A DNA stretch of 64,000 nt from Minisyncoccota bacterium. Lineage in GTDB: Bacteria > Patescibacteriota > Minisyncoccia > JAHIHE01 > JAGLIN01. Each line of letters starts with the position of its first letter. Position 1 is the first letter of the stretch. Positions 18,468 through 53,022 of the stretch are shown one piece after another. The notes below the pieces were generated by a model that was given only the letters and a program-made list of their open reading frames with translations, had not been told where the DNA came from and searched no databases. A program made the translations under genes and the position numbers. The stretch is from contig JBAZUT010000004.1 of assembly GCA_041661265.1 (NCBI GenBank), positions 63,980 through 127,979 on the forward strand. Direction: 5' to 3'.

Positions 18468-18473
18468 ACGATC

Positions 18474-19028: not shown

Positions 19029-19032
19029 AAAA

Positions 19033-21093: not shown

Positions 21094-21330
21094 TGTGTTA
21101 TAATAATATTGTATCTGTGAGAAGAAATATGTATCAATAGATTATCGAATTGAGCTGAGGGTAAACTATTGTTACATAATTCAAAAATCAAAAAAGTTGA
21201 TTTTAGAGATTTTTAAATTTTGAATTGTAATTTTGAATTTTTAGTTTTGCATCTTTAATTTTCGCCGCAGACCAGCATTGAACCGCTGTATGCTTGATTT
21301 CGTAATGCGATGATAATTACACTAGAATAA

Positions 21331-22401: not shown

Positions 22402-22417
22402 ACATGATAATCGGAAT

Positions 22418-23053: not shown

Positions 23054-23060
23054 ATATTTT

Positions 23061-23615: not shown

Positions 23616-23623
23616 GAACAAAT

Positions 23624-33867: not shown

Positions 33868-33870
33868 ATG

Positions 33871-35346
33871 TTATTTTATATACATCGTAAGATTGAAATT
33901 TATGTCGCTTTTTTTCGCAATATCCGATGAAGACAGAGAAGCGTTAAAAAAATCATCAGAAGCGGCTACAGTATTCTTGAAATACTTGTATCCTTCCCTG
34001 GATGATGATATTCCGGATATGTTTATCGTTTTTGCCAGGTCGTTTATGCTGATGTTCGAAAAGGATATTCCGGTCGTTGCGAGCCTGTTTATCTTTCCGA
34101 TCAGTTCGGAGTGATCAGTTTGCGACAGGGATCTGATGCTGCTGATATCGGAAATGTATCCGTTAAACTCTTTTGTGTCAGTTTCCATTTTGAGGTATTC
34201 TGCGGATATCGGGACACTGTTCTTTACATTCAGCTGATTTGTGAGGCCGGCTTCAAGCGATGTTATGAATATAAAGAATGCTATGAATATTGAAACGTAG
34301 AAGACCGATAAGGACGATATAAAGAAAAGTATTGATTTCGAAAAAGATATGGCTTTTTGGGTTTCGTACAGGCTTTCGGTCCCGACAGGGAGAAGGCTTA
34401 TTATGGTGTCGTCGCTTCTGGGTATGAAAGCTCTTGCGGCGGCGCCTGCAACAGGAAGCCAGTCGCTGTTTTCAAGGGATTTGATCTTGATACTCGTTTT
34501 TTCAATGGGGATCTGGATCTTCCCTATCTTTTTGATCAGGGCGTCTGTATTGAAACCCTGGCTGACAATAAGCGCTTTTTCTATGCCGATGGATCCGTTC
34601 TTGCTTTCGAAATACAGAGAGAGTGTGACGATCTTCGCTTTAATTACAGTTTTGAGATCGTTCAGGTTTTTTATGGGTTTTCCAGCTGATGCTTCCCGCC
34701 ATGTTTCAAATTGGCTGAAATAGGGCCGCTTGTTTTGATATATCGTGCTGCTTATGCCCTCGTCCGTGAGATGTATCAGGGCAATAGGGGACTCCGGCAG
34801 ATCAATCACTCTTTCCAGGCTGAGGAAGTATGTTTCGAGCGCGATAAGTTCGAATGAACTCGCCTTCAACGCTTCGATATATGCATCGATCAATGTTTTT
34901 TTTGCCAAAGAAACAAGGACCTGTTTTTTGCCGTTGATCTCGCCGACAATCTCCCAGTCAAAATAGCATGAAGACAGCGGGAATGGAAAGCTGTCGGATG
35001 CGTTCGTGGTGATCGCTTCGAGAAGCTGTTCGCTGTCGAGGATCTTCGGGAATTCCAGGATCTTGCTGTATATCCTGTTGGGCGGGATCGTGACCACTGC
35101 GAAGTTTGAAAGAAGTTTTTTCGGAGCGAACGTTTTTTTCAGCTTCTCCAGCGCCACAACCAGTTTTTTCTTGTCCGTGATCTCTCCTGAGGCGATTATG
35201 CCGTCATCGAGCTCAACCTCGGATCTTCCCTTGATGGAGATATTGCCATAAGCGTCCTGCTGCAAATAAAACATCCTCAGTTTCTCGCTGCTTATATCGA
35301 TCCCTACGATCTTTTCTTTTGGAACAAGGAGTTTTATCAGGTTCAT
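33871..35346 (-). CDS. pilM: PilM-PilN fusion protein (actin-like PilM domain plus TM plus PilN-like periplasmic domain).
   Basis: 491 aa. N-terminal PilM-like fold (IVGIDISSEKLRMFYL, ...IALIHLTDEGISSTI...), central TM (ILFFISSLSVFYVSIFIAFFIF), C-terminal about 130-aa periplasmic region. Confidence 0.75.
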   Translation of the reverse strand: MNLIKLLVPKEKIVGIDISSEKLRMFYLQQDAYGNISIKGRSEVELDDGIIASGEITDKKKLVVALEKLKKTFAPKKLLSNFAVVTIPPNRIYSKILEFPKILDSEQLLEAITTNASDSFPFPLSSCYFDWEIVGEINGKKQVLVSLAKKTLIDAYIEALKASSFELIALETYFLSLERVIDLPESPIALIHLTDEGISSTIYQNKRPYFSQFETWREASAGKPIKNLNDLKTVIKAKIVTLSLYFESKNGSIGIEKALIVSQGFNTDALIKKIGKIQIPIEKTSIKIKSLENSDWLPVAGAAARAFIPRSDDTIISLLPVGTESLYETQKAISFSKSILFFISSLSVFYVSIFIAFFIFITSLEAGLTNQLNVKNSVPISAEYLKMETDTKEFNGYISDISSIRSLSQTDHSELIGKINRLATTGISFSNISINDLAKTINISGISSSREGYKYFKNTVAASDDFFNASLSSSDIAKKSDINFNLTMYIK

Positions 35347-35358
35347 CGTTTTGTTTTG

Positions 35359-35778
35359 TTAGAATATCTCTTTTTTGGATAGCAGCGTCAGTCTGCCGTT
35401 GCTGTCCATATCAAAAGATGCTTGAATTTTTTTTGTGTTATTATCAAAAAGTCCGGTACTGGTTATTATGATCTGATTCGGGGGGGGGGAGCTGTCAAAA
35501 TCAATGGTCGCTGTGCCATTATTCAGCTGCAACGTATAGCCGGTATTATAGTTCTTGTCCCGTGCGACCTTTTCCAGCGCATCTCTTATTCCTGCTTCCG
35601 CGATATAGTAGGCGTTAAGCGCATTTTCGTTGTTCCTGATTATCTCGATCTTATTATAGCTTGCCAAGTTCATTGCCAGTCCGATCGCAAGCAGTGCGGC
35701 AGCAAGTATCAGAACAGTCGGAAGCGCGATTGCTCCCTTATCATGCAATGCGGTTTTGTTTGATATAAATTTGGTCAT
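35359..35778 (-). CDS. PilX_N-domain minor pilin / pseudopilin.
   Basis: 139 aa. N-terminal hydrophobic anchor plus ALNAYYIAEAGIRDALEKV (PilX N-terminal-like). Overlaps the upstream pseudopilin gene by 4 nt. Confidence 0.7.
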   Translation of the reverse strand: MTKFISNKTALHDKGAIALPTVLILAAALLAIGLAMNLASYNKIEIIRNNENALNAYYIAEAGIRDALEKVARDKNYNTGYTLQLNNGTATIDFDSSPPPNQIIITSTGLFDNNTKKIQASFDMDSNGRLTLLSKKEIF

Positions 35779-36356
35779 TTTGGTAAAACAGTTGTCTGGC
35801 TTGTTTGTCGATATACATAATCACGTCTTCCGTTATCATTATAGCTTATATTCAGCTTAATTTGAATAGAGCCGGCTATGTTTTTGAAGGTCGGATCATT
35901 CGGAGGATTTGATGCGGAAAGAGTGACTTTCGAGCTTAGAAGGTCCTGAGGCGTGCAGTCGGGGTCGGGGGTGGCGCAATCGATCTTGCACTCGCCCGAT
36001 GCCAGGCAGTTCGCTCCCAAAACACCCAAAGTTCTTTTGAGCGTTCCGTTTTGCGCATCAAATCGGAGCAGTATCTCGCCTGAATTCGATACGATATCCA
36101 AAATGTCTCCATTCGGATTTATATTGACGGAATCGGCTCCTTCCTGGCCTCTTGTGCCATTAACGATATTCTGCATGGCGAATTGAAGATTTTGCTGGAC
36201 CTCGGTTCTTGCCTCGCTTGATCCGGAGTTGATGGCAAAGATGGAAAAAACATTGGCAATGACCATCATGACTCCCGCCAAAAGCCCCATGTAGATGAGG
36301 AGTTCGAGGAGGGAGAATCCACCGCTATACTTATTTTTTATAGTTTTATCGGACAT
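35775..36356 (-). CDS. Prepilin-type minor pilin.
   Basis: YSGG|FSLLELLIYMGLLAGV with Glu+5; 193 aa. Confidence 0.85.
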   Translation of the reverse strand: MSDKTIKNKYSGGFSLLELLIYMGLLAGVMMVIANVFSIFAINSGSSEARTEVQQNLQFAMQNIVNGTRGQEGADSVNINPNGDILDIVSNSGEILLRFDAQNGTLKRTLGVLGANCLASGECKIDCATPDPDCTPQDLLSSKVTLSASNPPNDPTFKNIAGSIQIKLNISYNDNGRRDYVYRQTSQTTVLPK

Positions 36357-36683: not shown

Positions 36684-37961
36684 TCAGGGTGCCCAATTCA
36701 CGACAACGCTGTCAACTTGCGGATTGTTCGATCCGCTTATGGCGCAGCTCGGATCCGAGCATAGGATGATCTTGTATCGGAAATATTTTTTGTTGTTGTG
36801 ATCGTCATAGCACTTGATCTCCTGAGGGGCGCCGGATGCGTTCTCGTAGTATGTCGTGTCCAGACATCCCAACCCCTGATCGGGTCCGAGGTATGCCCAA
36901 TTGCCGCTGTCGTCACAGGCAGGAGGATTTGTTTTTCCGTTCGGGCAATTCGATGTTGCGAGCTGGAGTCTGACGCCCCCGCCGTTCAAAAGCCCAATCC
37001 ACATTATCGAATTATATGCGGCGCCTTTTGCGGATCCCGTGTCGAAGGTCGAGGATATCGAGTATCCGGTTATCGGATATGTGCCTTGTTCCGCGTGTTC
37101 GTAAGTCAGATAAAGACGGGCGCTCCAGGAGCTGACCGGTTTATCGGAAGTGAAGTGAAATGTATAATCTTTATTGTTGACGATGTCCATGTCGGATAAG
37201 GCATCATATCTTATCATGAATTTTGTCGTGCTTTGCGGACCAAGATCGATCGCATAAGACTTTTTATAGTTCACTGAAGCGCCCGAATTATAGAGACCTG
37301 CCTGAACCGTGCCGGCACCGGAGCCTTTGAAGACGCCGCCAATCTCGACAATCGCGCTTCTCAAAACGGGATTTGTTTCGGGAGCCGAGATCGAAAAATT
37401 TTTGGTGATCACTCCGTTTGCGGCAGTTTTGCTGTTTTCCTGTCCGACAAAGAATTCCGTTGTCTTGAGAAGAGTGCTTTGAACGCTGTCGTATTCATAG
37501 GTCAGGATCAGTTTTGCGGAAAATATGGAGAAATTACCCCCGGTTGCGCTTCCCGTCAGATTCAGGGTATAGGCAGCGGTTGTATTGAAAATTATGGATG
37601 TTGCATCGTAGTTTATATTGAATTCTTGTGCTTTGGTCGAAAGGTCGATCATATATGTTTTTGGATCAGAAGCTATTCCGCCCTGAAGGTCTGTTGTGAT
37701 GCTCTGAGATCCTGAGGTATTATATGAAATTCCGCTAATCTCGATGTGAGCTGTCTTGATCGTGACTGCATTTTCCGGGATCGTAACACTGAATGCGGAA
37801 GAATAGGGGGTTCCTGCCGTTTGAACGGCATTATCTTGTGCGGCAAAAAAAGTCACTGTCTTGGAAACCGTAAGCGCATTCAGTTTTTTTGAATATGAAA
37901 AAAATAGCGTTGTCAGCGGCAAGATCAAAAACATCAAAATAATTTTATTGCGCTTTTTCAT
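36684..37961 (-). CDS. Secreted protein: two copies of a ~125-aa beta-rich domain of unrecognised family plus a C-terminal 8-Cys domain; adhesin-like.
   Basis: Signal peptide MKKRNKIILMFLILPLTTLFFS. Domain copies end AKLILTYEYD and ARLYLTYEHA and share F[FV]AxQ, TIPE/SAPE, LRSAIVEI/KTAHIEI, YTLNL/YTFHF motifs; C-terminal Cys-rich ~130 aa. Confidence 0.7.
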   Translation of the reverse strand: MKKRNKIILMFLILPLTTLFFSYSKKLNALTVSKTVTFFAAQDNAVQTAGTPYSSAFSVTIPENAVTIKTAHIEISGISYNTSGSQSITTDLQGGIASDPKTYMIDLSTKAQEFNINYDATSIIFNTTAAYTLNLTGSATGGNFSIFSAKLILTYEYDSVQSTLLKTTEFFVGQENSKTAANGVITKNFSISAPETNPVLRSAIVEIGGVFKGSGAGTVQAGLYNSGASVNYKKSYAIDLGPQSTTKFMIRYDALSDMDIVNNKDYTFHFTSDKPVSSWSARLYLTYEHAEQGTYPITGYSISSTFDTGSAKGAAYNSIMWIGLLNGGGVRLQLATSNCPNGKTNPPACDDSGNWAYLGPDQGLGCLDTTYYENASGAPQEIKCYDDHNNKKYFRYKIILCSDPSCAISGSNNPQVDSVVVNWAP

Positions 37962-37970: not shown

Positions 37971-40900
37971 TTAGGGGGTGTAGGAATACGTTAAGATCAA
38001 TTTTGCGTTCAGGACATAAGTCGGTGTGGTTGTACCTTTCAGGAACAAGGTATAATTCTTGCTTCCGGCGGGGCCTGAGGTTGTGAGGTCCTGCATATTC
38101 TCCTGTCCGTTGCCCTGAACATTCAATGCGTCAAAAAGGATCGTGAACGGTGTGGGTCCTGAGGAAGAAGACTCGATCGTGAAATTGTCTCCTGCAGGCC
38201 CTGAGGGCTGATTTCCGCGCAGGAATCCCACGTTTATGGTCTGATCGGACGCAGAGGCTCCGGACACGCCATTCAGTTCTATCATTGCGGATCTCAGGGA
38301 TACGGTGTTATTCGGGTTTTCGGGGATGGTAACAGAAAAATTAAATGATCTGGCTGTTTCCACAACAGACCCTTGCTCCTGGGCAATAAACATCTCAACG
38401 GTCTTTATGGGCATGGCGGCTCCGGTGGCGAAAGTGCAGTTTGCAGAAAAGCCTTCGTTTCCAAAAAAGTCTTTCGAACGGGCCCTTAACACATAACCCG
38501 ATCCGGGCGAAAGATTTGAAAGGCTGATCATATGAATTCCGCCTGCTCTGGGATTCGGGATCGCCGGAGAAAAGTTTCCGGGAATGGACCATGTTTCGGC
38601 ATCTGTACCGATCTTATATTCGACTTGAGCTGTGGCGAAATCTTCTTCTCCCGGAGGATTGGCGTCGTTCGTATTCCAATCGATCATAGCGGATGTATCG
38701 GAAATATTCGATGCCGGGCAGACTCCTGCAAGGAGAGGGGGAGTGTTGTCGAGATAGAGGTCCGTGTTTGTCGCCTGAGGCGCGGTTCCGAATTCGGTCC
38801 ATGGGCCGATCTTTCCGGCTGAATTCGTCAGTCTTATATGCCAATGATAATTCCCGTCATTTGCTGCGGTTATACCGCTTACGTTCAGGAAGTCTCTGAT
38901 CATTATTCCGGAATAGGGGAACGATCCCTGAACAAAGAATCCGGAGGTCCGTTCAGGACAATTCGGGAGTATGCACTGAAAGCTTATTCCTATCGGCTGC
39001 ATTTCAAATTCTGGCGTGATCGTTTCCCCCGATGTCTTGTTGGAATCCATATCCAGTCTGAAATACGCCGATGATTGATTCCCGAGCCCTCCTCCTTCCG
39101 CAATGTCCAAGGTCGGGGGTTGGGCAAGATCAGTGTTGGCTGCGAACTGAAAAATGTTTGAGATTGCCGAATTTATGGTTAAGCTGCTGTAGCTTCCCGA
39201 TAGGCCGCTAGAGGGATTAGTTACGACGACAGTCCATGTGCCGACTTTTATTTCTGTAAAATCAAAAGCTCCTCCGTTCAAAAGTGCGGCACTTACTCTT
39301 GTAAAGGGAGTGGAAGGTGTTAGATCGGTTTCTCCTGCCATGGTAAGTTTTATAGTAGGACTTAAGTCAAAATTATTTCCATTTATTGAAATGCCCGACA
39401 GTAGTTCAAAATCAAATCCATTTGCGGGAGAGATTCCTGTAATACTTGGTCCGTTCGGATTTACAGTAAGGCATCCCCCGCAGGTGCTTACAAATCCGTC
39501 CATGTTTGTAAGCTCGAGGTCCCATGCTCCGTCGATGGCGCTGGATAAGTCAAATGTTGCGTACACATTCTGATATGCGGTTGTAACGCCATAGGCAGCT
39601 CCGACATTGTCTCCCTGAATGGAAGTTTGACCCGTTTTCTTCAGCCGGAAAACCGGTCTCGTGTCGGTGGGCATTGTGTCAGAATCGATCCCGAAACCAT
39701 TGAAATGTATGACGACACCTGTCTGTCCGCTTGTAACCGGAGATGAAGAGGAGCTGGTTATGAGCGGAGGGTCAATAGTAAAATTTCCTGCCGGATATTG
39801 ATTACTGGTTTTTGCGTCTGAACGAGTTAGCTGGATTTTGCCGGTCGTGACACCAACTCCCTGCTGTCCGGGAATTCGAACTGTCAGACTAGTTTCACTC
39901 CAACCTCCGATCAGTGCGGCAGAATTATTGATTACAGTCACGCTGCCGGTGCTTGTTCCAAAATGATCGCCGGAGATTACGATATTCGAGCCGATCTGTC
40001 CGTTTGCCGGTGCGGAACTGATATTCGGGTAAATATAAAAATCCAAAGGCGTGCTGTCGGGAGCTCCTGCGCTGACTACTTGCAGGGAAACCAGTCCTCC
40101 GTATGAGGCGAGATTGGCATTAACCGCAAATGTAATGGACGAGTTTGACCAGGCGGTTACATCGGCGTCAGTCACTGTGGCATTGCCACCCACGATAAAT
40201 CTCACGCATCCCGTTCCTGCGCCTCCCGCACAGTTTGCCCTGGAGCCTGCCAGCACCGTCCCAAAATTGGAGCCGGTTATGATGGCGCTATAGCCGCTTC
40301 GCGCTCCATCACCGCCGATCTCATAAGAAACGGAGGTTGCATCCATCACCGCCGCATTGATCGTAATCATGCCTGGAGAATAATCGCTGACATCAGGGTT
40401 GACGCCATCAGTGGCGATCCCATAAATATAATAATTTCCGGGAGTAATCCCTGTCGTGTCCCATGAACAAATGGCGCCGGAACCCTCAGCTTGATTCTGA
40501 CAGGTTGGAATTGCTGTATATCCATTTCCGCTATTGGTATCGCTGTCATAATAGAAATTAACCGTAGCCGCGTCTTCTGCGTCGGAAAGATCATACATGA
40601 TGTTGTATGGATCGCCAACAGCCACAGTGTCACTTGTGCCGTCGGGCTGGATGACAGAAAGTACGGGTGCAGTGTTAGGCTGTTTTTTTATAATAAACAT
40701 TCTGCCTGCGCCGGCCTGCGTGGTACCTGTAGTGGTAATCGTTTTGGCGGTTATGGTCTGGCTCGCGCCGGATGAATTCAATCCGGTTTGCACGACCGCT
40801 CCGGCATCGGTTCCCAAATTAGTATTGGCGGTAGTTCGCACCGCCCAGGTAAGCGAATTTCCCGAAAGCACGGTCTGGCCGGTAATATTTTCAAATCTGC

Positions 40901-41588
40901 CACCAAACACCACGGCCATGTCTCCGTCATTAACTGTGGCTATCGCCGGCGCGGCTATCGGTCCGATATTAAGCGATGATGCCCAGTTGGAAAGAGAGGC
41001 GGTGTAGTTGACGATCGGATTTATTGTATCTGTTCCCCTGTAAGTTTGAATGAATTCAATCACGGTTTCACCGGAATTACCTGCCGTGTGATTGGTGATA
41101 CTTGCCTGAAATGTTCCATCACCAGCTTGCTTCATTCGCCAGCCAACCGCAACCAGACCCCTACTTACCGTTACTGAACTGAAAACGGGAGTAAAGCCTG
41201 CAGGGAGATTTACGGTTTCATTTCCGCCTGTAGCGCGGGAATAGTGGTAGAAAACCAACAGATCGCCGTCTGAGGTGGAAGCGTTCGGAGTTATCGCGCC
41301 CGGTGCGCCTCCATTAGTATAAATTATGTTGGAGTTGCCGATATAACCGGCTGCCGCACGCGCTTCCTGAACTTTTATTCCCTCGGCCAAATTTCTGTAT
41401 GAATTGAATTTATCGACCACATTCTCGTCTTTTGAAATGTGAAAAGCCTTATCGACGATATCGCGCGAAGCGAGATAGGAGTTGATAACTGAATCGATAA
41501 CATAAAAAGGACCGTTGGAAAATGATATTCCCAAGATCGCTGTAAAGATCAGAAAAGATCTGAGGATTTTATTAATTATTTTCTTCAT
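37971..41588 (-). CDS. Giant secreted cell-surface adhesin-like protein (1205 aa) with multiple Ig/FN3-like beta modules; C-terminus is a third copy of the ~125-aa domain.
   Basis: Signal peptide. Gly/Thr/Ser/Ala/Asn-rich beta-strand-like composition with repeated about 90-100-aa modules. C-terminal ...FIAQEQG...TIPENPNNTVSLRSAMIELNG...YTLFLKG...AKLILTYSYTP matches the domain in 36684..37961. Higher local G+C than neighbours. Confidence 0.8.
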   Translation of the reverse strand: MKKIINKILRSFLIFTAILGISFSNGPFYVIDSVINSYLASRDIVDKAFHISKDENVVDKFNSYRNLAEGIKVQEARAAAGYIGNSNIIYTNGGAPGAITPNASTSDGDLLVFYHYSRATGGNETVNLPAGFTPVFSSVTVSRGLVAVGWRMKQAGDGTFQASITNHTAGNSGETVIEFIQTYRGTDTINPIVNYTASLSNWASSLNIGPIAAPAIATVNDGDMAVVFGGRFENITGQTVLSGNSLTWAVRTTANTNLGTDAGAVVQTGLNSSGASQTITAKTITTTGTTQAGAGRMFIIKKQPNTAPVLSVIQPDGTSDTVAVGDPYNIMYDLSDAEDAATVNFYYDSDTNSGNGYTAIPTCQNQAEGSGAICSWDTTGITPGNYYIYGIATDGVNPDVSDYSPGMITINAAVMDATSVSYEIGGDGARSGYSAIITGSNFGTVLAGSRANCAGGAGTGCVRFIVGGNATVTDADVTAWSNSSITFAVNANLASYGGLVSLQVVSAGAPDSTPLDFYIYPNISSAPANGQIGSNIVISGDHFGTSTGSVTVINNSAALIGGWSETSLTVRIPGQQGVGVTTGKIQLTRSDAKTSNQYPAGNFTIDPPLITSSSSSPVTSGQTGVVIHFNGFGIDSDTMPTDTRPVFRLKKTGQTSIQGDNVGAAYGVTTAYQNVYATFDLSSAIDGAWDLELTNMDGFVSTCGGCLTVNPNGPSITGISPANGFDFELLSGISINGNNFDLSPTIKLTMAGETDLTPSTPFTRVSAALLNGGAFDFTEIKVGTWTVVVTNPSSGLSGSYSSLTINSAISNIFQFAANTDLAQPPTLDIAEGGGLGNQSSAYFRLDMDSNKTSGETITPEFEMQPIGISFQCILPNCPERTSGFFVQGSFPYSGIMIRDFLNVSGITAANDGNYHWHIRLTNSAGKIGPWTEFGTAPQATNTDLYLDNTPPLLAGVCPASNISDTSAMIDWNTNDANPPGEEDFATAQVEYKIGTDAETWSIPGNFSPAIPNPRAGGIHMISLSNLSPGSGYVLRARSKDFFGNEGFSANCTFATGAAMPIKTVEMFIAQEQGSVVETARSFNFSVTIPENPNNTVSLRSAMIELNGVSGASASDQTINVGFLRGNQPSGPAGDNFTIESSSSGPTPFTILFDALNVQGNGQENMQDLTTSGPAGSKNYTLFLKGTTTPTYVLNAKLILTYSYTP

Positions 41589-42543
41589 GATAATCTCTTA
41601 TATAGGCGTAAGTTTTTTCTGAAACATCTTCCATTTTTTCCATGGCCATCTTTTCATTGTTGTCTCTTATCATTATGGTCAGCAAGTATGGCCTGTTTTT
41701 AAAATATATCAGTCCGGAATCCAAATAAATTTCTTTTTCCCGATCTATGCCGATTTTATGCGAAAAAATGATATCTTGGGGCAGTGCGCTTTGGATATAA
41801 TCTTTAAACGGCGATTGAGACAGGAAGTTAAGCAGTTTTTGCGAATTCTCGTCGGATAAATAGGAGGAATTATACAGCGTTCTAAAAATAACCGAATATC
41901 TTTTGGCGCTAAGATTGCCGTTCGTAGAGAGAAAACCTTTCAATCCCATGTGCTCATACACATCGTCGATTTCCTCCGTTTCCAAATTCCTAACCAGGAT
42001 AAAGTGTGCCGTGTTGTCAGAATCGGCAAGAGAACGTCTTACGAGTTCTTCTATGGTGAATGTCGATCCGGTAGATTCTTTGTGCAATGATCCGAATTTA
42101 TCATCCCTATCCGAAGACATGAGCACCAGCTTGTTGGTCCATTTCCATTCGCCTTTTTCTATTTTTTTTGCAACGGCCATAGCCGCTGGAACTTTCAGTA
42201 AGCTTGCCGGATAGAATTCGGCGTCTTTGTTTGTTGCGATACTGGCACCTGTCGGCAAATACTCAAAATAGATCGAAACATTCAAATCTTTTTTATATTT
42301 TTCGTCTAAGTATTCGCGGAGCGGCTGTACATTGATTATCAAGTCTTGTTTATCAATTAGTTTCCTGGCGGGATCAAGAAATTCGAATTTTCCGCTCGCA
42401 GACTCTTTCGAAATATTCGTTTCATCCGGCGCATAAACGAAAAATGTCCACAAGTTTGTTATCGTCAAAATCGCCGTCAAAATCCCTAATGCGATTACAG
42501 TTATATTTTTATCATTGTTTTTCTTGTTCCCGATTTCTTTCAT
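41572..42543 (-). CDS. Membrane-anchored class-A beta-lactamase-fold serine hydrolase (penicillin-binding-protein-like).
   Basis: N-terminal TM. SxxK (ASLLK), SDN (DSDNTA) and KxG (HKIG) motifs in the correct order and spacing for class A / PBP-like enzymes. Overlaps the adhesin gene by 17 nt. Confidence 0.65.
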   Translation of the reverse strand: MKEIGNKKNNDKNITVIALGILTAILTITNLWTFFVYAPDETNISKESASGKFEFLDPARKLIDKQDLIINVQPLREYLDEKYKKDLNVSIYFEYLPTGASIATNKDAEFYPASLLKVPAAMAVAKKIEKGEWKWTNKLVLMSSDRDDKFGSLHKESTGSTFTIEELVRRSLADSDNTAHFILVRNLETEEIDDVYEHMGLKGFLSTNGNLSAKRYSVIFRTLYNSSYLSDENSQKLLNFLSQSPFKDYIQSALPQDIIFSHKIGIDREKEIYLDSGLIYFKNRPYLLTIMIRDNNEKMAMEKMEDVSEKTYAYIRDYHEENN

Positions 42544-42558: not shown

Positions 42559-43146
42559 CTAAATTTCCGCATTAACCGTATGGCTGCCTTTTGGAAAGAA
42601 GATCGTCCAGATGAATTTTTTAGCTCCAGCATCATAATGCATCGATAGGCTTGTGATCTCAGGATTTTCCGGATAAGTCGAGAAGAATGTTTTTGCGACA
42701 AGCGTAGAATCCACAAATTCTCCTTTCAGTGTCTGAAGAGCTTTCACCGATTCTTTTTCTTCTCCGCCCCGCGATTCTCCGTCTTTAACGACGATCTCAT
42801 AGAGCATGTTCTTCGCCTGTGAATAGAAAACGAATTTCCAGCCATTGGACTTTCCTTCGGCCGTGAACTTTTTGGAAAAAAGGGTGATCTCGGAAAGATA
42901 TGAATCTTCTGACCAGGCCAGGGCATCCTGATCTGCAAGCCGCAGAGCTTCTTTCGCCGTAAGGTCGGCCTGAACTGTTTCTCGTTCGATCAATTTATTG
43001 TCATTTTTTTCAGAAGGAACATCGTTTTGCAGATTGATGGTCTTTGTTCCGGATAGGGGTCCTGGTTTCAGCGTATAGCCAAGCGCAAGACCCGTGAGGA
43101 ATGCGAGGATGATCGCAAGACCTGATAAAGCTTTACCATATTTCAT
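42559..43146 (-). CDS. Membrane-anchored or lipoprotein-like hypothetical protein.
   Basis: 195 aa; N-terminal hydrophobic segment ALSGLAIILAFLTGLALG then a soluble domain. Inside T4P operon 2. Confidence 0.55.
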   Translation of the reverse strand: MKYGKALSGLAIILAFLTGLALGYTLKPGPLSGTKTINLQNDVPSEKNDNKLIERETVQADLTAKEALRLADQDALAWSEDSYLSEITLFSKKFTAEGKSNGWKFVFYSQAKNMLYEIVVKDGESRGGEEKESVKALQTLKGEFVDSTLVAKTFFSTYPENPEITSLSMHYDAGAKKFIWTIFFPKGSHTVNAEI

Positions 43147-43164: not shown

Positions 43165-43878
43165 TTATTTAAATTTCAGCGAGCCCGCACCGGTGTCCAG
43201 TTTACCGCTGCCATTATCCAGGTCGCTATAGGAATCCCATCCATTCTCATTTGCGGGGTTATCCAATCCTGCGGTGCAAACGGACAATGCGGCGTTCCAT
43301 GTTCCCGAAAGCGCCTCGCATCCGGCCTGATCGGCGGGAGCGGGGGATCCCCAGCCGTCCTGTTTCATTATCCTGTTCTTCCATCGTGTGACATATTGTT
43401 CCAGAATAGCGTCTTTCCCGTCGGCATAGGATATTACTATCTTTATTTTCTGCGTTGACGGATCTTCGGACCCGGATGATATCGAGATGTTTCCGTTGTC
43501 GCGATTGACGTTGTCGATGATTATCTTTCTCGTATAGACCTTGTTGTTAAGCGTGATATCGCAATCGGACGCGACGTCGGTGAGCAGCCAGGAGGATGCG
43601 TCATTCTTCAAGCAATAAACGAAACTTTCGCCCTTGTTGTTCTTGCTGCCGTTTCCGTCCGGAGGAAGATAAATGCTGTGCCAGGAGCTTTCGCTTATGG
43701 ATTTGACAGCTTCCATGCCTTCTTGGGCGAGCATCAACGCATCAAATCTGCTTTCCGTGAACTTTCCTTCTTTCATGTTCACGAAAAAGAGGTTTGAGAC
43801 CGCGATCACGATAATCGCAACCACCATTATGGCAACGAGCATTTCTATTAAAAGCTGGCCTTTTGAATTTAATTTCAC
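43165..43878 (-). CDS. Prepilin-type minor pilin.
   Basis: NSKG|QLLIEMLVAIMVVAII with Glu+5; 237 aa. Confidence 0.8.
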   Translation of the reverse strand: MKLNSKGQLLIEMLVAIMVVAIIVIAVSNLFFVNMKEGKFTESRFDALMLAQEGMEAVKSISESSWHSIYLPPDGNGSKNNKGESFVYCLKNDASSWLLTDVASDCDITLNNKVYTRKIIIDNVNRDNGNISISSGSEDPSTQKIKIVISYADGKDAILEQYVTRWKNRIMKQDGWGSPAPADQAGCEALSGTWNAALSVCTAGLDNPANENGWDSYSDLDNGSGKLDTGAGSLKFK

Positions 43879-43902
43879 TTTATTTCCTGAATTATCTCTG
43901 AT

Positions 43903-44388
43903 TTAAGGCATGCCGACAAATCCGGAAGTTCTTATGGATATATCTATATACAAGCTGGTATCTGCGAAGTCCTCTATCCTGATAGTGCAGTCGCGCGTTG
44001 TTTCTGCATTGGGCCGCGAGAAAATGATCTCATTACATCCGCCCAAAAGCGAATCGGCATTGATCTTCAGGGTGTTCGGCAGATAATCTTCCTTGACCGT
44101 GGTTTTTGTCGTGCCGTCATCGCTGAACGTCGAGATCTTGCCGCTTGCCGCATCAAATGAAACTCCCCAATTCTTTGCTTCGTTTCCGCTTAGGGCTTTC
44201 GCCTGAGCGCTCCGGAGCAAGCTGATGATTATCCTTGAAGAAGAATCGAGGTCTGCCGATTTTTTATACCCTCCCAGCCAGAGCGAAATTCCGGAAGCAA
44301 AAACAGCAAGGATGGCGATCGATATCAGAAGCTCGATCAGGCTGAAACCATGCTCAGTATCAAGTATCAAGTATTTTGTATTTAGCAT
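43903..44388 (-). CDS. Prepilin-type pilin.
   Basis: DTEHG|FSLIELLISIAILAV with Glu+5; 161 aa. The leader peptide is encoded by a 9-bp tandem repeat (see 44355..44443). Confidence 0.85.
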   Translation of the reverse strand: MLNTKYLILDTEHGFSLIELLISIAILAVFASGISLWLGGYKKSADLDSSSRIIISLLRSAQAKALSGNEAKNWGVSFDAASGKISTFSDDGTTKTTVKEDYLPNTLKINADSLLGGCNEIIFSRPNAETTRDCTIRIEDFADTSLYIDISIRTSGFVGMP

Positions 44389-44443
44389 TAATATATGGAA
44401 TCAAACAGTTAGTATCTAGTATCCAGTATCTGGCATCTAGTAT
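44355..44443. repeat. ATACT(T/A)GAT-type periodic repeats (9-nt period) spanning the 5' UTR and leader-peptide codons of the pilin gene 43903..44388.
   Basis: Within the CDS (- strand sense): atacttgat atacttgat actgag encodes KYLILDTE; upstream (sense) tatactagat gccagatactg gatactagat actaa. Plus-strand coordinates 44355-44374 and 44410-44443. Confidence 0.7.
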
Positions 44444-44487
44444 AAATTCTAATACCATATATCACATACCATATACTATGTACCGAT

Positions 44488-45699
44488 TCATCCCACCGTC
44501 CCGACGATCTGATATATGGGAACGATGATCGAGAACGCGATGCCTCCGACGATCAGCCCCATCACAAGGATGAGCAGAGGTTCTATCAGGGAGATGACAT
44601 TCTTGAGTCCGTTATCAACTTCTTCCTCATAAAAAGCGGCAAGATCTTTCAGGACCGAATCCAGTTTTCCGGTTTTTTCTCCCACTGAAACCATGTTTAT
44701 CACGAGGTAGGGGAAATCCTTCTTTCTTCTTCGCAGTGACATTCCCAGCGATGATCCCTGGCTGATCTCGGTGTTGATCTCCTTGAAGTCGTTGCGATAT
44801 CGGTTGTATCCGAGGACTTCGCTTGATATGTCAATGGCCTTGAGGATGCTGACTCCGCTTGAAAGAAGGATCCCCAATGTCCGCGTGAATCTCGCCAGCA
44901 CTATTTTCCTATAAAGGTCCGAAACGACGGGCGTCCTCAGCATCAGCGATGAACTGAAAAACTGGAATGAAGGCCGGTTCTTGACAAGCATGAATGTTGC
45001 AACGGATGCAATAAGCGCAATTATGATGACAAGGATATTCTTTCCCAGAAAATCGCTGACGCTCATTATGAATTTTGTGCTCCATGGAAGATTCAGGTTG
45101 TTCTGAAAAAAGACCTTGGTCAGCCGGGGGATCACAAGGACCATGAGGATCGTTATGACGCCGAGGGATGCCAGAACAAGGATCGCCGGATATATCATCG
45201 CATTTTTAACCTTCTGCCTCATCTTATAATCCTTTTCGATCTGGATCCCGAGATAATCAAGAGATCTTTCCAAGGTTCCGGACACTTCTCCGGATTCGAG
45301 GATCGCGATGAATACTTTTGAAAAGAAATTCGGATATTTTTTGAAAGTATAGGACAGCGGCTGTCCTTTTTCCAGGTTTGATTTCGCTTCAGTGAGGATC
45401 CTGATGAGGATCTTTTTTCTTGCGTCATTAAGAAGTGTGTCCAGCCCTTCCTTTAGGCTGAGGCCGGCTTTGATTATTATGGAAAGATGTTTCGTGAGCA
45501 TGAGCTTGTCGACTGCAGACGGCGCCGAATGACCAAAAAGCGAAAGCCTTCCCATGGGATTCTGCTTTTCTTTTATGGAGACGACCGTCAGATTCTGACG
45601 GTTGAGATAGCCGAGGGCGATATCCTTGTTCTGAGCCTCTGTCTCCCCGTTGGTTATCTTTCCCTTGCTGTTTACCGCGGTATATATGAATGTGGACAT
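44488..45699 (-). CDS. pilC: Type IV pilus platform protein PilC (GspF family), second copy.
   Basis: 403 aa; two T2SF repeats, three TM; same architecture as 15730..16944. Confidence 0.9.
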   Translation of the reverse strand: MSTFIYTAVNSKGKITNGETEAQNKDIALGYLNRQNLTVVSIKEKQNPMGRLSLFGHSAPSAVDKLMLTKHLSIIIKAGLSLKEGLDTLLNDARKKILIRILTEAKSNLEKGQPLSYTFKKYPNFFSKVFIAILESGEVSGTLERSLDYLGIQIEKDYKMRQKVKNAMIYPAILVLASLGVITILMVLVIPRLTKVFFQNNLNLPWSTKFIMSVSDFLGKNILVIIIALIASVATFMLVKNRPSFQFFSSSLMLRTPVVSDLYRKIVLARFTRTLGILLSSGVSILKAIDISSEVLGYNRYRNDFKEINTEISQGSSLGMSLRRRKKDFPYLVINMVSVGEKTGKLDSVLKDLAAFYEEEVDNGLKNVISLIEPLLILVMGLIVGGIAFSIIVPIYQIVGTVG

Positions 45700-45936
45700 T
45701 GAAGTAAATTCAAAAATAAAAAATCAAAATGTAAAATGACAGATCAAAATGATAAAAGTTTGCATTTAATAACTGATGACCGGGAAACAAACGCCAAACA
45801 AGTTTCAATCACCGAATGAACAAAGTACGAGCATCTGATTATTACTCGCCTGCAGGCAGACAGATATTTTGATGTTTGGATATTTTAAGCTTTGCATTTT
45901 CACTTTGATTTTTGATATTTAAATTTTACATTATCA

Positions 45937-47637
45937 TCACTCCCTTATCACCCTCAATATCTCCGAAATGGTAGTGAGCCCTTTCTGCACTTTCTCAAGT
46001 CCGTCCTCGAACATAGGGACCATGCCTTCTTTTTCCGCGGTATCCCTGATCTCGCTTCCCTGGGCTTTTCTCAGGATCAGCTTTTTTATTTCGCTCGTGA
46101 TGTTCAAGAATTCAAATATGCCGATCCTTCCGCGATACCCGCTTTTTCCGCAGATCTCGCAGCCATTCGCGCTGTATATAGTGTCGAAGGTGCCTATATT
46201 GAACTTGGAGTGCGGATTCTGAGACAGCTGGCTCTTGATGATCTCAAGCGTTTCGGCGTCGATCTTTCCGCTCGAAAGGCATTTGGTGCAGTTCTTCCTG
46301 ACCAGCCTTTGCGCTATGACAAGGTTCAGCGTGGAAGCGAGAAGGAACGGTTCAGCTCCCATGTCGATCATTCGGGGGATCGCAAGAGACGCGCTGTTCG
46401 TGTGGAGGGTTGCAAGGACGAGGTGTCCCGTGAGCGAGGCCTGGATCGCCATATTAAGTGTTTCTTTATCCCTTATCTCTCCGACCATGATGATGTTCGG
46501 GTCCTGGCGGAGGAATGACCGGAGTCCGTCCGCAAAAGTGATGCCGGTCTTTTTGTTGACCTGCGTCTGGTTTATCCTGGCTATGTCGTATTCGATCGGA
46601 TCTTCAATGGTGCAGATGTTGACCTCCTGTTTGTTCAATATGTGCAATATGGAATAAAGAGTGGTTGTTTTTCCGCTTCCGGTGGGGCCTGTCACGAGGA
46701 TCATTCCCTGAGTTTTCATGATGTTCGCATAAAGCGATTCATGGCAGTTCTCGGATAGTCCCAGTTCGGCGAAGCTGACGGGTCCGAGGGATCCTGAAAG
46801 TATCCTGAGCACGGCTTTTTCTCCATGGAATGTCGGCATGATGGAAACTCTGACCGAAATATCCCTGTCTTGAGATCTGAATTTGAACCGGCCGTCCTGG
46901 GGCGCTCTGTGTTCATCGATCTGCAGGTTCGAAAGGATCTTGATCCTTGCGATAAGGGCGGAATGAACGATGGCGGGAAGTTCCGTGATGTCATGCAAAA
47001 TGCCGTCGATCCTGAATCTCACAACGACCTTGTTCGCAAATATCTCAAAGTGGATGTCGGACGCGTTGCCATAGGCCGCATAGTCCAGGATCGTGTCCAT
47101 GATGGAAATGATCGGGATCTCCTGGGCGATCTTTGCGGGATCATCCTGGCTCGTTTTTGCTTTTTCGATGTTGCTTTCGATTATATCATAGAATTCCTTT
47201 CCGATATCGCGCTTGTAGTTTTTCATCGCCTTTTTCAGCTTTTCTTTTCCGGCAATATATATTTTGACCGGCATGCCAGTCGTTATTTTCACATATTCTA
47301 TGGTTTCAAGGTCCAGGGGATCCTGCATGGCAATCTTCAGGAATCCTTTTTCTTCCCCGAATGCGATGAGCTGTTTTTTTTGGGCCATGCTTTCGCTTAT
47401 TCTGGAAAGTACCTTCGAATCGATCTTTTCTTTGGAGGGATCGGCTTCGGGAACATCAAGATATTCCGAAAGAAGTTCGGTGAGATAGTTTTCGGTCAGC
47501 ATGTTGCCGCCGATGAGCACATCCGCTATCGATTCTCCGGACCGGATGGACTCTTCTTTCGCTTTTGCAAAATCGGATCCGTCGATAATTCCGGAATCCA
47601 GGATTATTTTTTCCAATGTTTTTTCGGGGAGAAGCAT
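45937..47637 (-). CDS. pilB: Type IV pilus assembly ATPase PilB (GspE family), second copy.
   Basis: 566 aa; Walker A GPTGSGKTTT, tetra-Cys CTKC...CEICGKSGYRGR, N-terminal GSPII_E_N-like domain. Confidence 0.92.
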   Translation of the reverse strand: MLLPEKTLEKIILDSGIIDGSDFAKAKEESIRSGESIADVLIGGNMLTENYLTELLSEYLDVPEADPSKEKIDSKVLSRISESMAQKKQLIAFGEEKGFLKIAMQDPLDLETIEYVKITTGMPVKIYIAGKEKLKKAMKNYKRDIGKEFYDIIESNIEKAKTSQDDPAKIAQEIPIISIMDTILDYAAYGNASDIHFEIFANKVVVRFRIDGILHDITELPAIVHSALIARIKILSNLQIDEHRAPQDGRFKFRSQDRDISVRVSIMPTFHGEKAVLRILSGSLGPVSFAELGLSENCHESLYANIMKTQGMILVTGPTGSGKTTTLYSILHILNKQEVNICTIEDPIEYDIARINQTQVNKKTGITFADGLRSFLRQDPNIIMVGEIRDKETLNMAIQASLTGHLVLATLHTNSASLAIPRMIDMGAEPFLLASTLNLVIAQRLVRKNCTKCLSSGKIDAETLEIIKSQLSQNPHSKFNIGTFDTIYSANGCEICGKSGYRGRIGIFEFLNITSEIKKLILRKAQGSEIRDTAEKEGMVPMFEDGLEKVQKGLTTISEILRVIRE

Positions 47638-47738: not shown

Positions 47739-48344
47739 TTATGATACCAGCTTCAGCTTGTCGAGGCCCAGTCTGTCGCCGAAATATAGCGAGAGGGAAA
47801 GGACGGTGATGGCCGCTATGATCATATATGGCGCGATGGGTATGAGCTCTCTTTTTTGAAGTGCGTAATAATTGAAAATTTGCTTTATGACCAGAAGCCC
47901 GAAAACGGCAAAGACATAGATGATAAAATTCGGCCAGCCGGCGATGAGCGCCGTGAGAAAACCCAGATAAACTTCCTTTTCATCCAGGAAGCGTCTGTTC
48001 GAATATTTGCAAAGCAGCATGAGATAGAAAGCCCAGGCGAGAGCTATTGCGACGTCAAGGACATAGGGGAGCCAGAAGCGATATATTGCATAGTTATAGA
48101 AATAGTCGATCGAGCGGAAAGGGGGGAGGATAAATTGGCTCAAGGGATCTTTTTCCCAGACCTGGAATTGGATCGACGTCGAAAAGCACGCGGTCATAAT
48201 AAAAACAGACATCAAAAATAGGATGCCGAATTTAACAAAGCCCGCGCTGACCCTTTTGTTTTTCACATAATCGTATAGCAGCAAAAACATCCATAGGAAG
48301 GATATTGCAAGCTCGGATATTTTTAATGCAGGAAGAATTTGCAC
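47739..48344 (-). CDS. Polytopic membrane protein (about 6 TM) between the major pilin gene and pilB; possible A24-like prepilin peptidase, very tentative.
   Basis: 201 aa; GTG start. Position (pilA, this gene, pilB, pilC) is where pilD often sits and there are Asp residues in predicted membrane segments (YVLDVAIALAW; YFGDRLG), but the canonical A24 motifs are not clearly recognisable. Confidence 0.5.
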   Translation of the reverse strand: MQILPALKISELAISFLWMFLLLYDYVKNKRVSAGFVKFGILFLMSVFIMTACFSTSIQFQVWEKDPLSQFILPPFRSIDYFYNYAIYRFWLPYVLDVAIALAWAFYLMLLCKYSNRRFLDEKEVYLGFLTALIAGWPNFIIYVFAVFGLLVIKQIFNYYALQKRELIPIAPYMIIAAITVLSLSLYFGDRLGLDKLKLVS

Positions 48345-48541: not shown

Positions 48542-49216
48542 TTAGAAATCTGTTCCTCCACCCAAAATTGTCAGACTAGTTCCGGTTTCGTATAAATCCG
48601 GGTTATTGCCGCCGTCCGATACTGCCTTCGCACCGAATTCGGTGCTTTCGAGTTTGGCATCTATCTCATAAGTTAAGCTATCTCCGCAAGCATATCTATA
48701 AACAAGGTCTGAATTGGCCACGCCTGCAGCAGTAACTGTATTGACCGGGTCAACTGGAAAATTCGATATTGGAGAGCCTCCCGCTAGACTGCTTATATTA
48801 ACGGGAATCCATCCATTTCCGGTCGTAAGCCCGATATTTGCTGCGGTTACCTGACCAGCGCCAGCTGTTCCTGTGAAAGTGGTTCCATCCAGTATCATAT
48901 CCGAAATATCGGTGGTATCGCTTGGAACGCTGTAATATATCTTACCACTGGATTCTTCTCCTACCCAGGTTGCTCCCACTTTGCAGGAACCATTGCTTCC
49001 CATGTCCATGGCAGGGGTCGTACTATTTGTAAGATATAGTCCGATGGCTGTTTTAACTGTTGAAAGATCGGTCATCCTTTGAGTGTCCCTGCTTTTCTTC
49101 ATCGTTTCTGCCGGATTTAGCACCAGGATCAGGGCCATAGCCAAGATTGATAGTATTGCAATGACTATCAAAAGTTCCAGAAGCGTAAATCCTTTTAATT
49201 GTTCTTGTTTAGTCAC
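48542..49216 (-). CDS. pilA: Type IV major pilin (PilA-like).
   Basis: EQLKG|FTLLELLIVIAILSILA with Glu+5, conserved pilin alpha1 helix, 224 aa; first gene of operon 2, followed by a strong hairpin. Confidence 0.85.
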   Translation of the reverse strand: MTKQEQLKGFTLLELLIVIAILSILAMALILVLNPAETMKKSRDTQRMTDLSTVKTAIGLYLTNSTTPAMDMGSNGSCKVGATWVGEESSGKIYYSVPSDTTDISDMILDGTTFTGTAGAGQVTAANIGLTTGNGWIPVNISSLAGGSPISNFPVDPVNTVTAAGVANSDLVYRYACGDSLTYEIDAKLESTEFGAKAVSDGGNNPDLYETGTSLTILGGGTDF

Positions 49217-53017: not shown

Positions 53018-53022
53018 AATGA

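Follow-up and report, generated by a model that had tools for sequence, protein, structure and literature searches.

Among described systems, the closest to the enzyme analysed here is PBP-A, a cyanobacterial family of class-A-beta-lactamase-like DD-peptidases, and its member Tll2115 from Thermosynechococcus elongatus (PDB 2J7V, 2J8Y and 2J9O) gave the best or near-best structural match. Experimentally, PBP-A was shown to be both a DD-carboxypeptidase and a DD-endopeptidase, and a PBP-A that was given the omega-loop Glu still stayed five orders of magnitude under a natural beta-lactamase (PMC11189452). Three further class-A-like proteins, 3CJM from Enterococcus faecalis V583, 4EWF from Sphaerobacter thermophilus and 4HES from Veillonella parvula, are uncharacterised; since they come from structural genomics and have been given no function, they carry no mechanistic information on the enzyme.

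Several lytic transglycosylases that cleave peptidoglycan, such as VirB1, BfpH, EtgA and FlgJ, are encoded in secretion or pilus gene clusters. They resemble the logic proposed below, namely wall cleavage that acts locally from the operon of a large envelope structure, although they have another fold and chemistry and cut glycan strands, not peptide stems, and we know of none that is coupled one-to-one to a giant partner with a conserved N-terminal module. Sortase/pilin and other sorting-enzyme/sorting-signal pairs likewise have a dedicated enzyme gene beside a surface-protein gene, and a short terminal signal stays conserved whatever variable cargo it is joined to, whereas in the pair described here the signal is N-terminal instead of C-terminal and a serine enzyme of PBP fold takes the place of the cysteine transpeptidase. 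For Pam pili, the published model puts a subunit carrying the C-terminal acceptor domain at the distal fibre end, and a PBP- or lactamase-like component is absent from that description (bioRxiv 10.64898/2026.03.03.709456); the type IV pilus (T4P) loci of Saccharibacteria TM7x are also described without such an enzyme gene (PMC11623550). In the literature searched, CPR pilus operons were nowhere described as containing a PBP- or lactamase-like gene.

The window, which is the whole 64,000-nucleotide stretch of the Minisyncoccota contig JBAZUT010000004.1 that was analysed, contains a gene for a PBP-A-like, class-A-fold serine enzyme of 323 aa (41572-42543, minus strand, ATG start). A transmembrane anchor was predicted at residues 13-37 (42433-42507, minus strand), where the Kyte-Doolittle profile stays above 1.6 with a 19-residue maximum of 1.99, and the AlphaFold2 (AF2) model (pLDDT 82.8) has a helix at residues 11-37 that is followed by a low-confidence linker. 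The N-terminal tail is rich in Lys and presumably cytoplasmic, so that, by the positive-inside rule, the catalytic domain would face outside. This Beta-lactamase2/penicillin-binding domain covers residues 90-291 (41671-42276, minus strand) and is matched by Pfam PF13354 with an E value of 7.3e-36 and 124 bits, a match which indicates that the SxxK/SDN/KxG triad is not due to chance. An earlier note had described a membrane-anchored 323-aa protein with these motifs in canonical order, overlapping and translationally coupled to a giant adhesin gene inside a T4P operon, and had pointed to the Beta-lactamase2 model and to structure prediction as checks; in all of these respects its account agrees with the ORF, the translated coordinates and the models.

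The active-site motifs were located by translation and family alignment, all on the minus strand. The SxxK motif, S114-L-L-K117 (42193-42204), provides the acylating serine and its lysine and lines up with the SxxK of PBP-A and 3CJM; of the 71 unique family members, all have S114 and 70 have K117. The SDN motif, S175-D176-N177 (42013-42021), is kept at all three positions in every one of the 71, and its spacing from S114 (61 residues) equals that of PBP-A, where the two sites are numbered 61 and 122 (PMC11189452). The equivalent of the KTG box is H-K-I-G at residues 262-265 (41749-41760), with K263 and G265 each kept in 70 of the 71 members, while the middle position is occupied by I in 55, by T in 12 and by V in 2. 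The window enzyme and its subfamily thus carry Ile where the KTG box has Thr or Ser, the residue that in PBPs and class A enzymes normally contacts the terminal carboxylate of the substrate. From SDN to KxG the distance is 88 residues in the enzyme, whereas PBP-A has 97 and standard class A numbering gives 104. In the profile alignment, Leu158 of PBP-A, at the Glu166 position, falls in a stretch that is deleted from the enzyme family, and no conserved acidic residue was present at positions 201-213 across the 71 unique members, the window protein having S206 and N208. The Glu166/Asn170 equivalent is therefore absent and the omega region is about nine residues shorter than that of PBP-A, suggesting that the substrate could differ from that of PBP-A.

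With regard to classification, the missing Glu166 equivalent and a score of 66.7 bits with the NCBIfam model bla_class_A, far under its cut-off of 200, put the enzyme on the PBP (DD-peptidase) side and rule against a true class A beta-lactamase; a member of the second subfamily scored 88.8 bits with the same model. Class A beta-lactamases such as TEM, CTX-M, PER and TLA have the fold and the three acylation motifs in common with the enzyme, which differs from them in having no Glu166/Asn170 deacylation machinery, in staying under the curated cut-off, in its membrane anchor and in its place in a pilus operon. Of the double label in the earlier note, class-A beta-lactamase or PBP fold, only the PBP half is thus upheld, and the Pfam families Peptidase_S11 and S13, which it had named beside Beta-lactamase2, were rejected (S11, 14 bits where 27.6 are needed; S13, no match). 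The nearest structures were PBP-A and 3CJM. PBP-A has the same SxxK/SDN/K(T)G layout and also has no catalytic omega-loop Glu, and with an identity of about 19-20% (phmmer E 2e-08, profile E 7e-14) the enzyme is, as far as alignments can tell, a distant relative of PBP-A that stands outside that clade. Unlike PBP-A, it has an N-terminal transmembrane anchor, a conserved 40-residue extension (residues 53-88), a shorter omega region and Ile in the KTG box, and it is confined to Patescibacteria, where its gene is tied to that of a giant protein within pilus operons; to our knowledge, no comparable partner protein exists for PBP-A. The enzyme may accordingly be described as a predicted bitopic membrane protein whose extracytoplasmic domain would be a PBP-A-like, class-A-fold acyl-serine enzyme, and it can tentatively be classed as a low-molecular-mass PBP of the DD-carboxy/endopeptidase type, not as a beta-lactamase.

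The partner of the enzyme is a giant surface protein of 1205 aa (37971-41588, minus strand) with Pfam TIG and Pur_ac_phosph_N (FN3-like) domains. The two genes overlap by 17 nt (41572-41588, minus strand, ATGAAGAAAATAATTAA), with the giant ATG at 41588-41586 and the enzyme TAA at 41574-41572, and homologues of the giant have conserved N-termini that back its start codon. In relatives, a large protein is encoded at this position in nearly all loci, and the junction usually lies between -26 and +10 nt, start/stop overlap being the rule. An alignment of 37 unique partner N-termini, obtained by a forward search from the enzyme, defined a conserved N-module at residues 1-80 (41349-41588, minus strand). 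In all partners this module is about 80 aa long and consists of a signal or transmembrane segment, NIVDK..NVVDKF and A.AA; in the window giant it is a hydrophobic signal/anchor ending FSN.PF, then DIVDKAF...ENVVDKF, with EARAAA at its end. D46, V58, D59 and A78 are invariant among the 37, and the partner sequences diverge exactly where the module ends, at A.AA. The giant was the single ORF in the window that matched the N-module HMM (E 9.6e-31), a homologue search with the first 100 residues of the giant gave nothing above threshold, and AF2 of the module only (120 aa, single sequence) returned low-confidence helices (pLDDT 42.7). At the other end, the giant carries a C-terminal domain of about 150 aa (37974-38420, minus strand), of which BLASTP found two copies (E 7e-12 and 2e-08) in the conserved downstream neighbour, a 425-aa protein (36684-37961, minus strand); the HMM of this domain had matches in 49 ORFs of related loci.

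The pair is placed within a T4P operon on the minus strand. The upstream half (43165-47637; Pfam and NCBIfam) encodes the PilB ATPase (45937-47637; T2SSE, E 2e-128), the PilC platform (44488-45699; T2SSF, E 1e-56) and two prepilin-type proteins (43903-44388 and 43165-43878; N_methyl, with GspH-like and PilV-like NCBIfam matches), and another prepilin-type protein was detected among the flanking genes, at 48542-49216. The downstream half (33337-36356) contains two minor-pilin-like proteins (35775-36356 and 35359-35778; weak N_methyl), a PilM-like protein (33871-35346; PilM_2, E 1e-13) and a PilO-like protein (33337-33867; PilO, E 2.6e-4). Genes for a histidine kinase and response regulators flank the enzyme-bearing operons. 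A second, separate T4P cluster lies on the plus strand (13822-24088; T2SSE, E 3e-131; T2SSF, E 2e-63; ORF translations) and contains PilB2, PilC2, pseudopilins, a 686-aa protein, PilM and PilN/O-like genes. No second copy of the enzyme or of the N-module giant was found within the window by tblastn and the N-module HMM, so that this second cluster serves as an internal control, suggesting that pilus passage as such does not need the enzyme.

The arrangement was found to be widely conserved. Relatives at least 46% identical to the enzyme, from many Parcubacteria lineages, keep the order PilB-PilC-pseudopilin(s)-[enzyme]-giant-425aa-minor pilins-PilM (loci L003-L009, L012-L023, L026, L027, L041, L043 and L046, and also metagenome loci), and this synteny was present in 5/5 long contigs examined and in about 22 distinct GTDB species loci. 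In the reverse search, which was built from subfamily-1 N-modules and covers subfamily 1 only, the enzyme was directly upstream of the module gene in 45/45 assessable loci, the 46th being left out as too short, owing to an inserted gene. The earlier note had raised the prospect of an unrelated hitch-hiker absent from homologous operons; synteny and reverse search rule this out, as the gene is kept there. The slot upstream of the giant is also kept where the neighbourhood has changed, that is, with other upstream genes in L001 and L003 and outside T4P operons, in a Pam context, in L025 and L028-L040, and over 69 pairs each enzyme subfamily goes with its own type of N-module, even where cargo or pilus context was swapped (L025, L042). 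The family comprises 815 clusters (50% identity) at E≤1e-30, and the mean column identity of the enzyme is 66%, with about 60% identity between distant Parcubacteria lineages.

In a subfamily that is 39-45% identical to the window enzyme, enzyme and giant are likewise paired, here within pilus operons of the Pam (donor-strand-exchange) type. Together with one 53% member (L025), these enzymes adjoin Pam-type pilins, and their giants have the C-terminal domain of Pam pilins at their end, which in L034 and L025 matched NF058581 (CPR_Pam_pilin_C; 56.9 and 79.9 bits, cut-off 55) and is like the acceptor domain of the tip pilin PamT. The window giant and its 425-aa neighbour had no match to the Pam models NF058579 and NF058581, and homology between the C-terminal domain of the giant and the Pam pilin C-domain was rejected, as hhalign also gave a probability of only 0.6%. 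A third subfamily, about 30% identical and from Saccharimonadales, adjoins other giant surface proteins (Kelch, Laminin_G_3) encoded on the opposite strand, and no N-module partner was found beside it. Because the pair recurs in Pam-type operons and is missing from the second T4P cluster of the window, the enzyme appears to be linked to the N-module of the giant and not to T4P as such. Judged by gene order, the enzyme and the N-module giant form a conserved two-gene cassette that is usually translationally coupled, and which in the window sits in one of two T4P operons.

The enzyme is probably a dedicated helper of the giant protein, not an antibiotic-resistance gene, and it is best read, at a rough probability of 45%, as a DD-peptidase of the PBP type that is dedicated to this pilus-associated giant. 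The enzyme would be made just ahead of the giant and inserted beside it in the membrane, where it might associate with the conserved N-module, and it would cut D-Ala-D-Ala ends or DD-cross-links of the organism's own peptidoglycan; the local loosening of the wall might then let the adhesin-like giant and the pilus-tip complex thread through. In L025 the cassette adjoins ftsI and murF, suggesting that such organisms make peptidoglycan with D-Ala-D-Ala ends, so that the substrate would be at hand. Points against this reading arise from the low identity with PBP-A, from the Ile in the KTG box, from the shorter omega region and from the second T4P cluster of the window, which manages without the enzyme. 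In addition, the strict adjacency to one protein, together with a module that ends at A.AA, is the pattern of an enzyme-substrate or sorting pair, not of general wall remodelling.

That pattern is the basis of an unlikely but substantive alternative, in which the PBP-fold enzyme is a maturase or sorting enzyme that recognises the N-module and acts on the giant itself. It might cleave after A.AA, so that the giant adhesin would be freed from its N-terminal anchor and could ride the pilus tip, or it might fix the giant covalently to the wall, the acyl group coming from a peptidoglycan stem peptide and being passed to an amine in the module, so that a PBP scaffold would do what a sortase does. 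The obligate pairing of genes that usually overlap or lie a few nt apart, the end of the conserved module at A.AA with its invariant A78 and the co-inheritance of module type with enzyme subfamily across cargos and pilus systems are consistent with such a role, as is Ile in place of the carboxylate-binding Thr, and the distal tip position of the Pam-context giants would be hard to square with a retained N-terminal membrane anchor. However, the known PBP-fold peptidases of the clade are D-stereospecific, and we know of no class-A-fold enzyme that processes ribosomal L-peptides. Since the hydrophobic segment of the giant spans only about 13 residues, with small residues (SFS|N) after it, its removal could also be left to ordinary signal peptidase I and would need no dedicated enzyme. 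In addition, the enzyme is very highly conserved, as would suit a substrate that does not vary, for instance peptidoglycan. In its broadest form, which we consider somewhat less likely still, this would be a new protein-sorting enzyme using the acyl-enzyme chemistry of DD-transpeptidases to free adhesins for T4P or Pam tips or to link them covalently to peptidoglycan, with a portable "enzyme + leader" cassette serving unrelated pili.

Compared with a DD-peptidase dedicated to the giant, a housekeeping low-molecular-mass PBP, i.e. a DD-carboxypeptidase that regulates cross-linking and works independently of pilus and giant, is improbable. The DD-peptidase fold and motifs, the identity between distant Parcubacteria lineages, which is as for a core wall enzyme, and the rsmH-ftsI-murF genes that the L025 cassette abuts would all suit it; against it stand the retention of the slot upstream of the giant in altered surroundings and the presence of the enzyme upstream of every assessable N-module gene, as a rule with start/stop overlap, since a pairing that survives so much rearrangement argues against random residence of the gene in the operon. 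The odds are similarly poor for a quiet scaffold or sensor, in which the PBP-like domain would bind stem peptides or the module and either position the giant or pilus base or signal wall status. BlaB, which is class-A-like and non-hydrolytic, provides a model for this, the missing deacylating base would make a long-lived acyl-enzyme possible, and the flanking histidine kinase and response regulators fit with signalling, but all acylation residues stay invariant over three subfamilies whose identity has dropped to about 30%, which looks like the signature of maintained catalysis and not of mere binding. Finally, a resistance-conferring class A beta-lactamase, as CPR homologues are counted in resistome surveys, is very improbable indeed: although SxxK, SDN and KxG are present, some sources label homologues "beta-lactamase class A" and CPR class-A-like proteins, which may be outside the enzyme family, had "some beta-lactamase activity" in vitro (PMC9145738), the family-model score, the absent deacylation residues and shortened omega region, the predicted membrane anchor of a protein that is not secreted and the pilus and adhesin genes of the operon all oppose it.

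Among the approximately 1,600 CPR sequences that resistome surveys count as "class A beta-lactamases", some may consequently not be resistance genes, though they may lie outside the enzyme family. The ultra-small CPR/Patescibacteria are thought to need pili and giant surface proteins for finding and holding host cells, and the enzyme ectodomain and the 80-residue module offer a testable handle on adhesin deployment in these organisms, most of which resist cultivation, with a genetic lock between enzyme and giant that holds in two unrelated pilus systems, T4P and Pam. If it were true that the enzyme acts on protein and not on peptidoglycan, this would be new chemistry for protein sorting.

Directly upstream of the enzyme, a poorly conserved, membrane-anchored protein of 195 aa is encoded at 42559-43146 on the minus strand. 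It had no Pfam or NCBIfam match, and among the related loci compared a homologue was present in L017 only; in relatives its place is taken by a pseudopilin-like protein of about 200-250 aa.

The enzyme gene (41572..42543, minus strand) begins with ATG and encodes 323 aa, and translation of the exact coordinates placed SLLK (S114-K117) at 42193-42204, SDN at 42013-42021 and HKIG at 41749-41760, all on the same strand. This triad is not a chance occurrence, since Pfam Beta-lactamase2 matches residues 90-291 with an E value of 7.3e-36. Residues 13-37 form a hydrophobic helix (Kyte-Doolittle maximum 1.99), which spans residues 11-37 in the AlphaFold2 (AF2) model built with 50 homologues as input (pLDDT 82.8). 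A Lys-rich tail lies N-terminal to this helix, from which we infer type II membrane topology, the catalytic domain facing outward. The stop codon overlaps by 17 nt (ATGAAGAAAATAATTAA) the start of the gene for a 1205-aa putative surface protein, the giant (37971..41588, minus strand), and the surrounding minus-strand genes encode PilB, PilC, four prepilin-type proteins, PilM, a PilO-like protein and a major-pilin-like protein. As the reading frame, motifs, fold, membrane helix, overlap and pilus neighbours were all found by translation, Pfam, Kyte-Doolittle and AF2, the description in the earlier note was right wherever it could be checked.

NCBI lists a MAG protein of identical sequence (100%) under the name 'serine hydrolase [Candidatus Paceibacterota bacterium]'. 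The window protein scored 66.7 bits against the NCBIfam model for class A beta-lactamases (cut-off 200), and HMMER gave no membership in Peptidase_S11 (Pfam), a family that the earlier note had proposed for comparison (14 bits, with 27.6 needed). Conservation was counted over 71 unique family sequences from three subfamilies, with 29-100% identity. S114 and the S175-D-N motif were kept in 71/71, and K117, K263 and G265 each in 70/71, so the catalytic Ser and Lys motifs are present on alignment. The region expected to hold Glu166 is shortened, with 88 residues from SDN to KxG (PBP-A, 97; class A numbering, 104), and the profile alignment revealed a gap opposite PBP-A Leu158. No acidic residue at 201-213 was conserved among the 71 family sequences, the window protein having S206 and N208. 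Among known structures, PBP-A and the uncharacterised 3CJM come closest to the AF2 model. PBP-A, a penicillin-binding protein of class-A-like type, has been shown to act as a DD-carboxypeptidase and DD-endopeptidase; the omega-loop glutamate to which class A enzymes owe their beta-lactamase activity is missing from it (PMC11189452). Judged from the alignment, the PBP-type acylation machinery is conserved and the deacylating Glu is absent. Because the acylation residues are kept and the shortened Glu166 region holds no conserved acid, the enzyme is best classed as an acylating PBP-type enzyme; of the two identities first proposed, the PBP-type fold and motifs were upheld and the beta-lactamase was not. 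A departure from the norm is the Ile that replaces the Thr/Ser of the KTG box in the subfamily of the window enzyme.

Of 510 proteins found by the homologue search, the best 120 have 57-69% identity; among these 120, every homologue with a named source was labelled Patescibacteria or Parcubacteria. A full HMMER scan yielded 815 clusters (50% identity) at E<=1e-30. Synteny was analyzed in five long-contig look-ups and 47 GTDB species loci, using tblastn with the operon proteins of the window. A large-protein gene was located directly downstream of every homologue with at least 46% identity and enough flanking DNA, and about 22 distinct loci carry the order PilB-PilC-pseudopilin(s)-[enzyme]-giant-~425aa-minor pilins-PilM. 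Their labels include Yonath-, Azam-, Nomura-, Wolfe-, Doudna-, Taylor- and Falkowbacteria, though several TPA assemblies bear unreliable organism labels: 'uncultured Gammaproteobacteria', for example, is the title of some loci whose genes are of Parcubacteria type. The earlier note had allowed for a hitch-hiker absent from homologous operons; tblastn found the gene present in them, and its kept position rules out hitch-hiking. Two Saccharibacteria loci (UBA1050/UBA6664), L053 (9845-10785) and L052, contain a PBP-like gene apparently split into two ORFs (123 + 163 aa), suggesting a frameshift or pseudogene. Two tandem PBP-like domains were observed in homologous proteins of ~600 aa (P0168, P0185, P0198, P0227, P0241, P0242 and P0253).

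The giant partners are highly divergent beyond a common ~80-residue N-terminal module (N-module), which runs from a short hydrophobic segment to FSN.PF, through NIVDKxW....D.NVVDKF and then a stretch to A.AA, after which the sequence likeness among giants stops. In 37 unique partner N-termini carrying the module, D46, V58, D59 and A78 were invariant. The enzyme-giant junction is kept although the upstream genes differ (a P-type ATPase in locus L001, LepA in L003), with a distance typically of -26 to +10 nt and occasional insertions of a PemK toxin gene or a Bro-N-like gene; pairs with such a mobile-type insert have lost the overlap but kept the adjacency. Inserts of this kind, a PemK-family toxin and a Bro-N-like protein (the latter judged from its translation), were located exactly between the pair in L001/L002 (10955-11350), L083-L085 and L087 (1-890). 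The reverse search from the N-module, covering type-1 modules (the version in the window) in metagenome contigs, found 47 loci, 45 of them with the enzyme directly upstream; one of the other two has only 31 nt upstream, and the other is a short contig where an inserted gene fills the available 890 nt. The 64-kb window itself has a single copy each of the enzyme gene and the N-module gene. By these gene neighbourhoods, the enzyme is more tightly linked to the giant gene than to the pilus operon. The loci compared show an obligate, usually overlapping pairing with an N-module giant, and a pair portable between pilus systems.

Two unrelated systems, T4P and Pam, were found to harbor the pair, as judged from gene content. 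Pam pili are recently described, CPR-specific and formed by donor-strand exchange (bioRxiv 10.64898/2026.03.03.709456); the preprint makes no mention of a lactamase- or PBP-like component and reports homologues mainly in Saccharimonadia and Microgenomatia. Loci L028-L040, whose enzyme homologues have 39-45% identity, lie outside T4P operons, and their enzyme genes overlap the gene for a ~1100-aa protein with a type-2 N-module (IVDKIY...NVVD...A.AA). The C-terminal domain of this giant fits NCBIfam CPR_Pam_pilin_C (56.9 bits, cut-off 55), and two ~365-aa proteins that follow score 69.5 and 67.2 bits. The module type follows the enzyme subfamily in 69/69 pairs (56 type-1 and 13 type-2). The agreement extends to swapped contexts: in L042 a type-2 pair lies within a T4P operon, while in L025 the enzyme and module are both type-1 and the cargo is Pam (79.9 bits). 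Also in L025 (3970-8219), the cassette comes immediately after the cell-division/wall genes rsmH, ftsI and murF, with a 523-aa protein of no assigned family between. A third subfamily (~30% identity, Saccharimonadales) lies beside other giant surface proteins with no N-module partner, and the second complete T4P cluster of the window (13822-24088, plus strand; PilB2, PilC2, three pseudopilins, a 686-aa pilin-like protein, PilM and PilN/O-like proteins) has neither a PBP-like gene nor an N-module giant. Pam-type pilins above the CPR_Pam_pilin_C cut-off were observed in the Parcubacteria-type loci L028-L040 and L025 (e.g., L034:10926-16605 and L025:10944-14873), together with ~900-1100-aa proteins made of six ~190-aa repeats fused to the Pam pilin C-domain. 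These loci may extend the range of the system and add a candidate giant tip subunit.

The predicted position of the enzyme is extracytoplasmic and membrane-tethered, and by homology to PBP-A its substrate would be the D-Ala-D-Ala or DD-cross-linked stem peptides in the wall of the cell itself; genes for MurF and FtsI are present in L025. The reading we favour, at a probability of roughly 45%, is that the N-module of the partner would position the enzyme, which as a DD-peptidase would loosen the wall at that site and let the adhesin-like giant emerge with its tip complex. The AF2 model of the N-module is of low confidence. The main rival, which we consider unlikely, holds that the enzyme acts on the N-module itself, cleaving at A.AA or transferring the giant to peptidoglycan; the pairing in the style of an enzyme and its signal, the module boundary at A.AA and the tip-pilin-like C-terminus of Pam-type giants favour it, but PBP-fold enzymes are D-stereospecific and the hydrophobic segment of the giant resembles an ordinary signal peptide. 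We give little credence to a housekeeping PBP, for an enzyme so regularly found beside a giant gene, and equally little to a non-catalytic scaffold or sensor, for a family with the nucleophile kept throughout. A true beta-lactamase is highly improbable for a protein without a Glu166 equivalent.

Compared with PBP-A, the fold and probable chemistry are alike, but the relationship is distant (~20% identity) and the window enzyme differs in its TM anchor, N-terminal extension, shortened omega region and KIG box. A similar operon logic is seen in secretion and pilus systems that have specialised wall-cleaving enzymes, though these are lytic transglycosylases and not PBPs. Surveys have listed CPR 'class A beta-lactamase' homologues among resistance genes with no mention of a pilus or giant context (PMC8651080, PMC9145738). 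No description of the enzyme-giant cassette or the N-module was found in the literature on CPR pilus systems. We read the case as a PBP-A-like enzyme that was probably recruited to serve giant pilus-associated proteins as a dedicated accessory.

The ~130-150-aa domain that ends the giant (37974-38420, minus strand) also occurs in the 425-aa protein downstream (36684-37961, minus strand) as two tandem copies (aa 30-157 and 165-291), an arrangement that recurs in most related loci; searches of Pfam and NCBIfam gave no match to this domain, and homology to the Pam pilin C-domain was not detected. A 201-aa polytopic membrane protein (47739-48344, minus strand) is encoded between PilB and the major-pilin-like gene; conserved in position in related operons (29-35% identity) and with no Pfam match, it is a candidate divergent prepilin peptidase. 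Two bAvd / 23S_rRNA_IVP genes, accessory genes of diversity-generating retroelements (DGRs), were observed inside the T4P operon of a relative, L007 (6569-6988 and 8850-9242), and hint that DGRs may diversify pilus-associated proteins. Immediately upstream of the pilus operon of the window, a PAS/HAMP histidine kinase adjoins a phosphonate-binding-type solute-binding protein (50393-53898, minus strand), and the upstream regions of L005-L007 likewise contain histidine kinases or response regulators, which suggests two-component control of the cluster.
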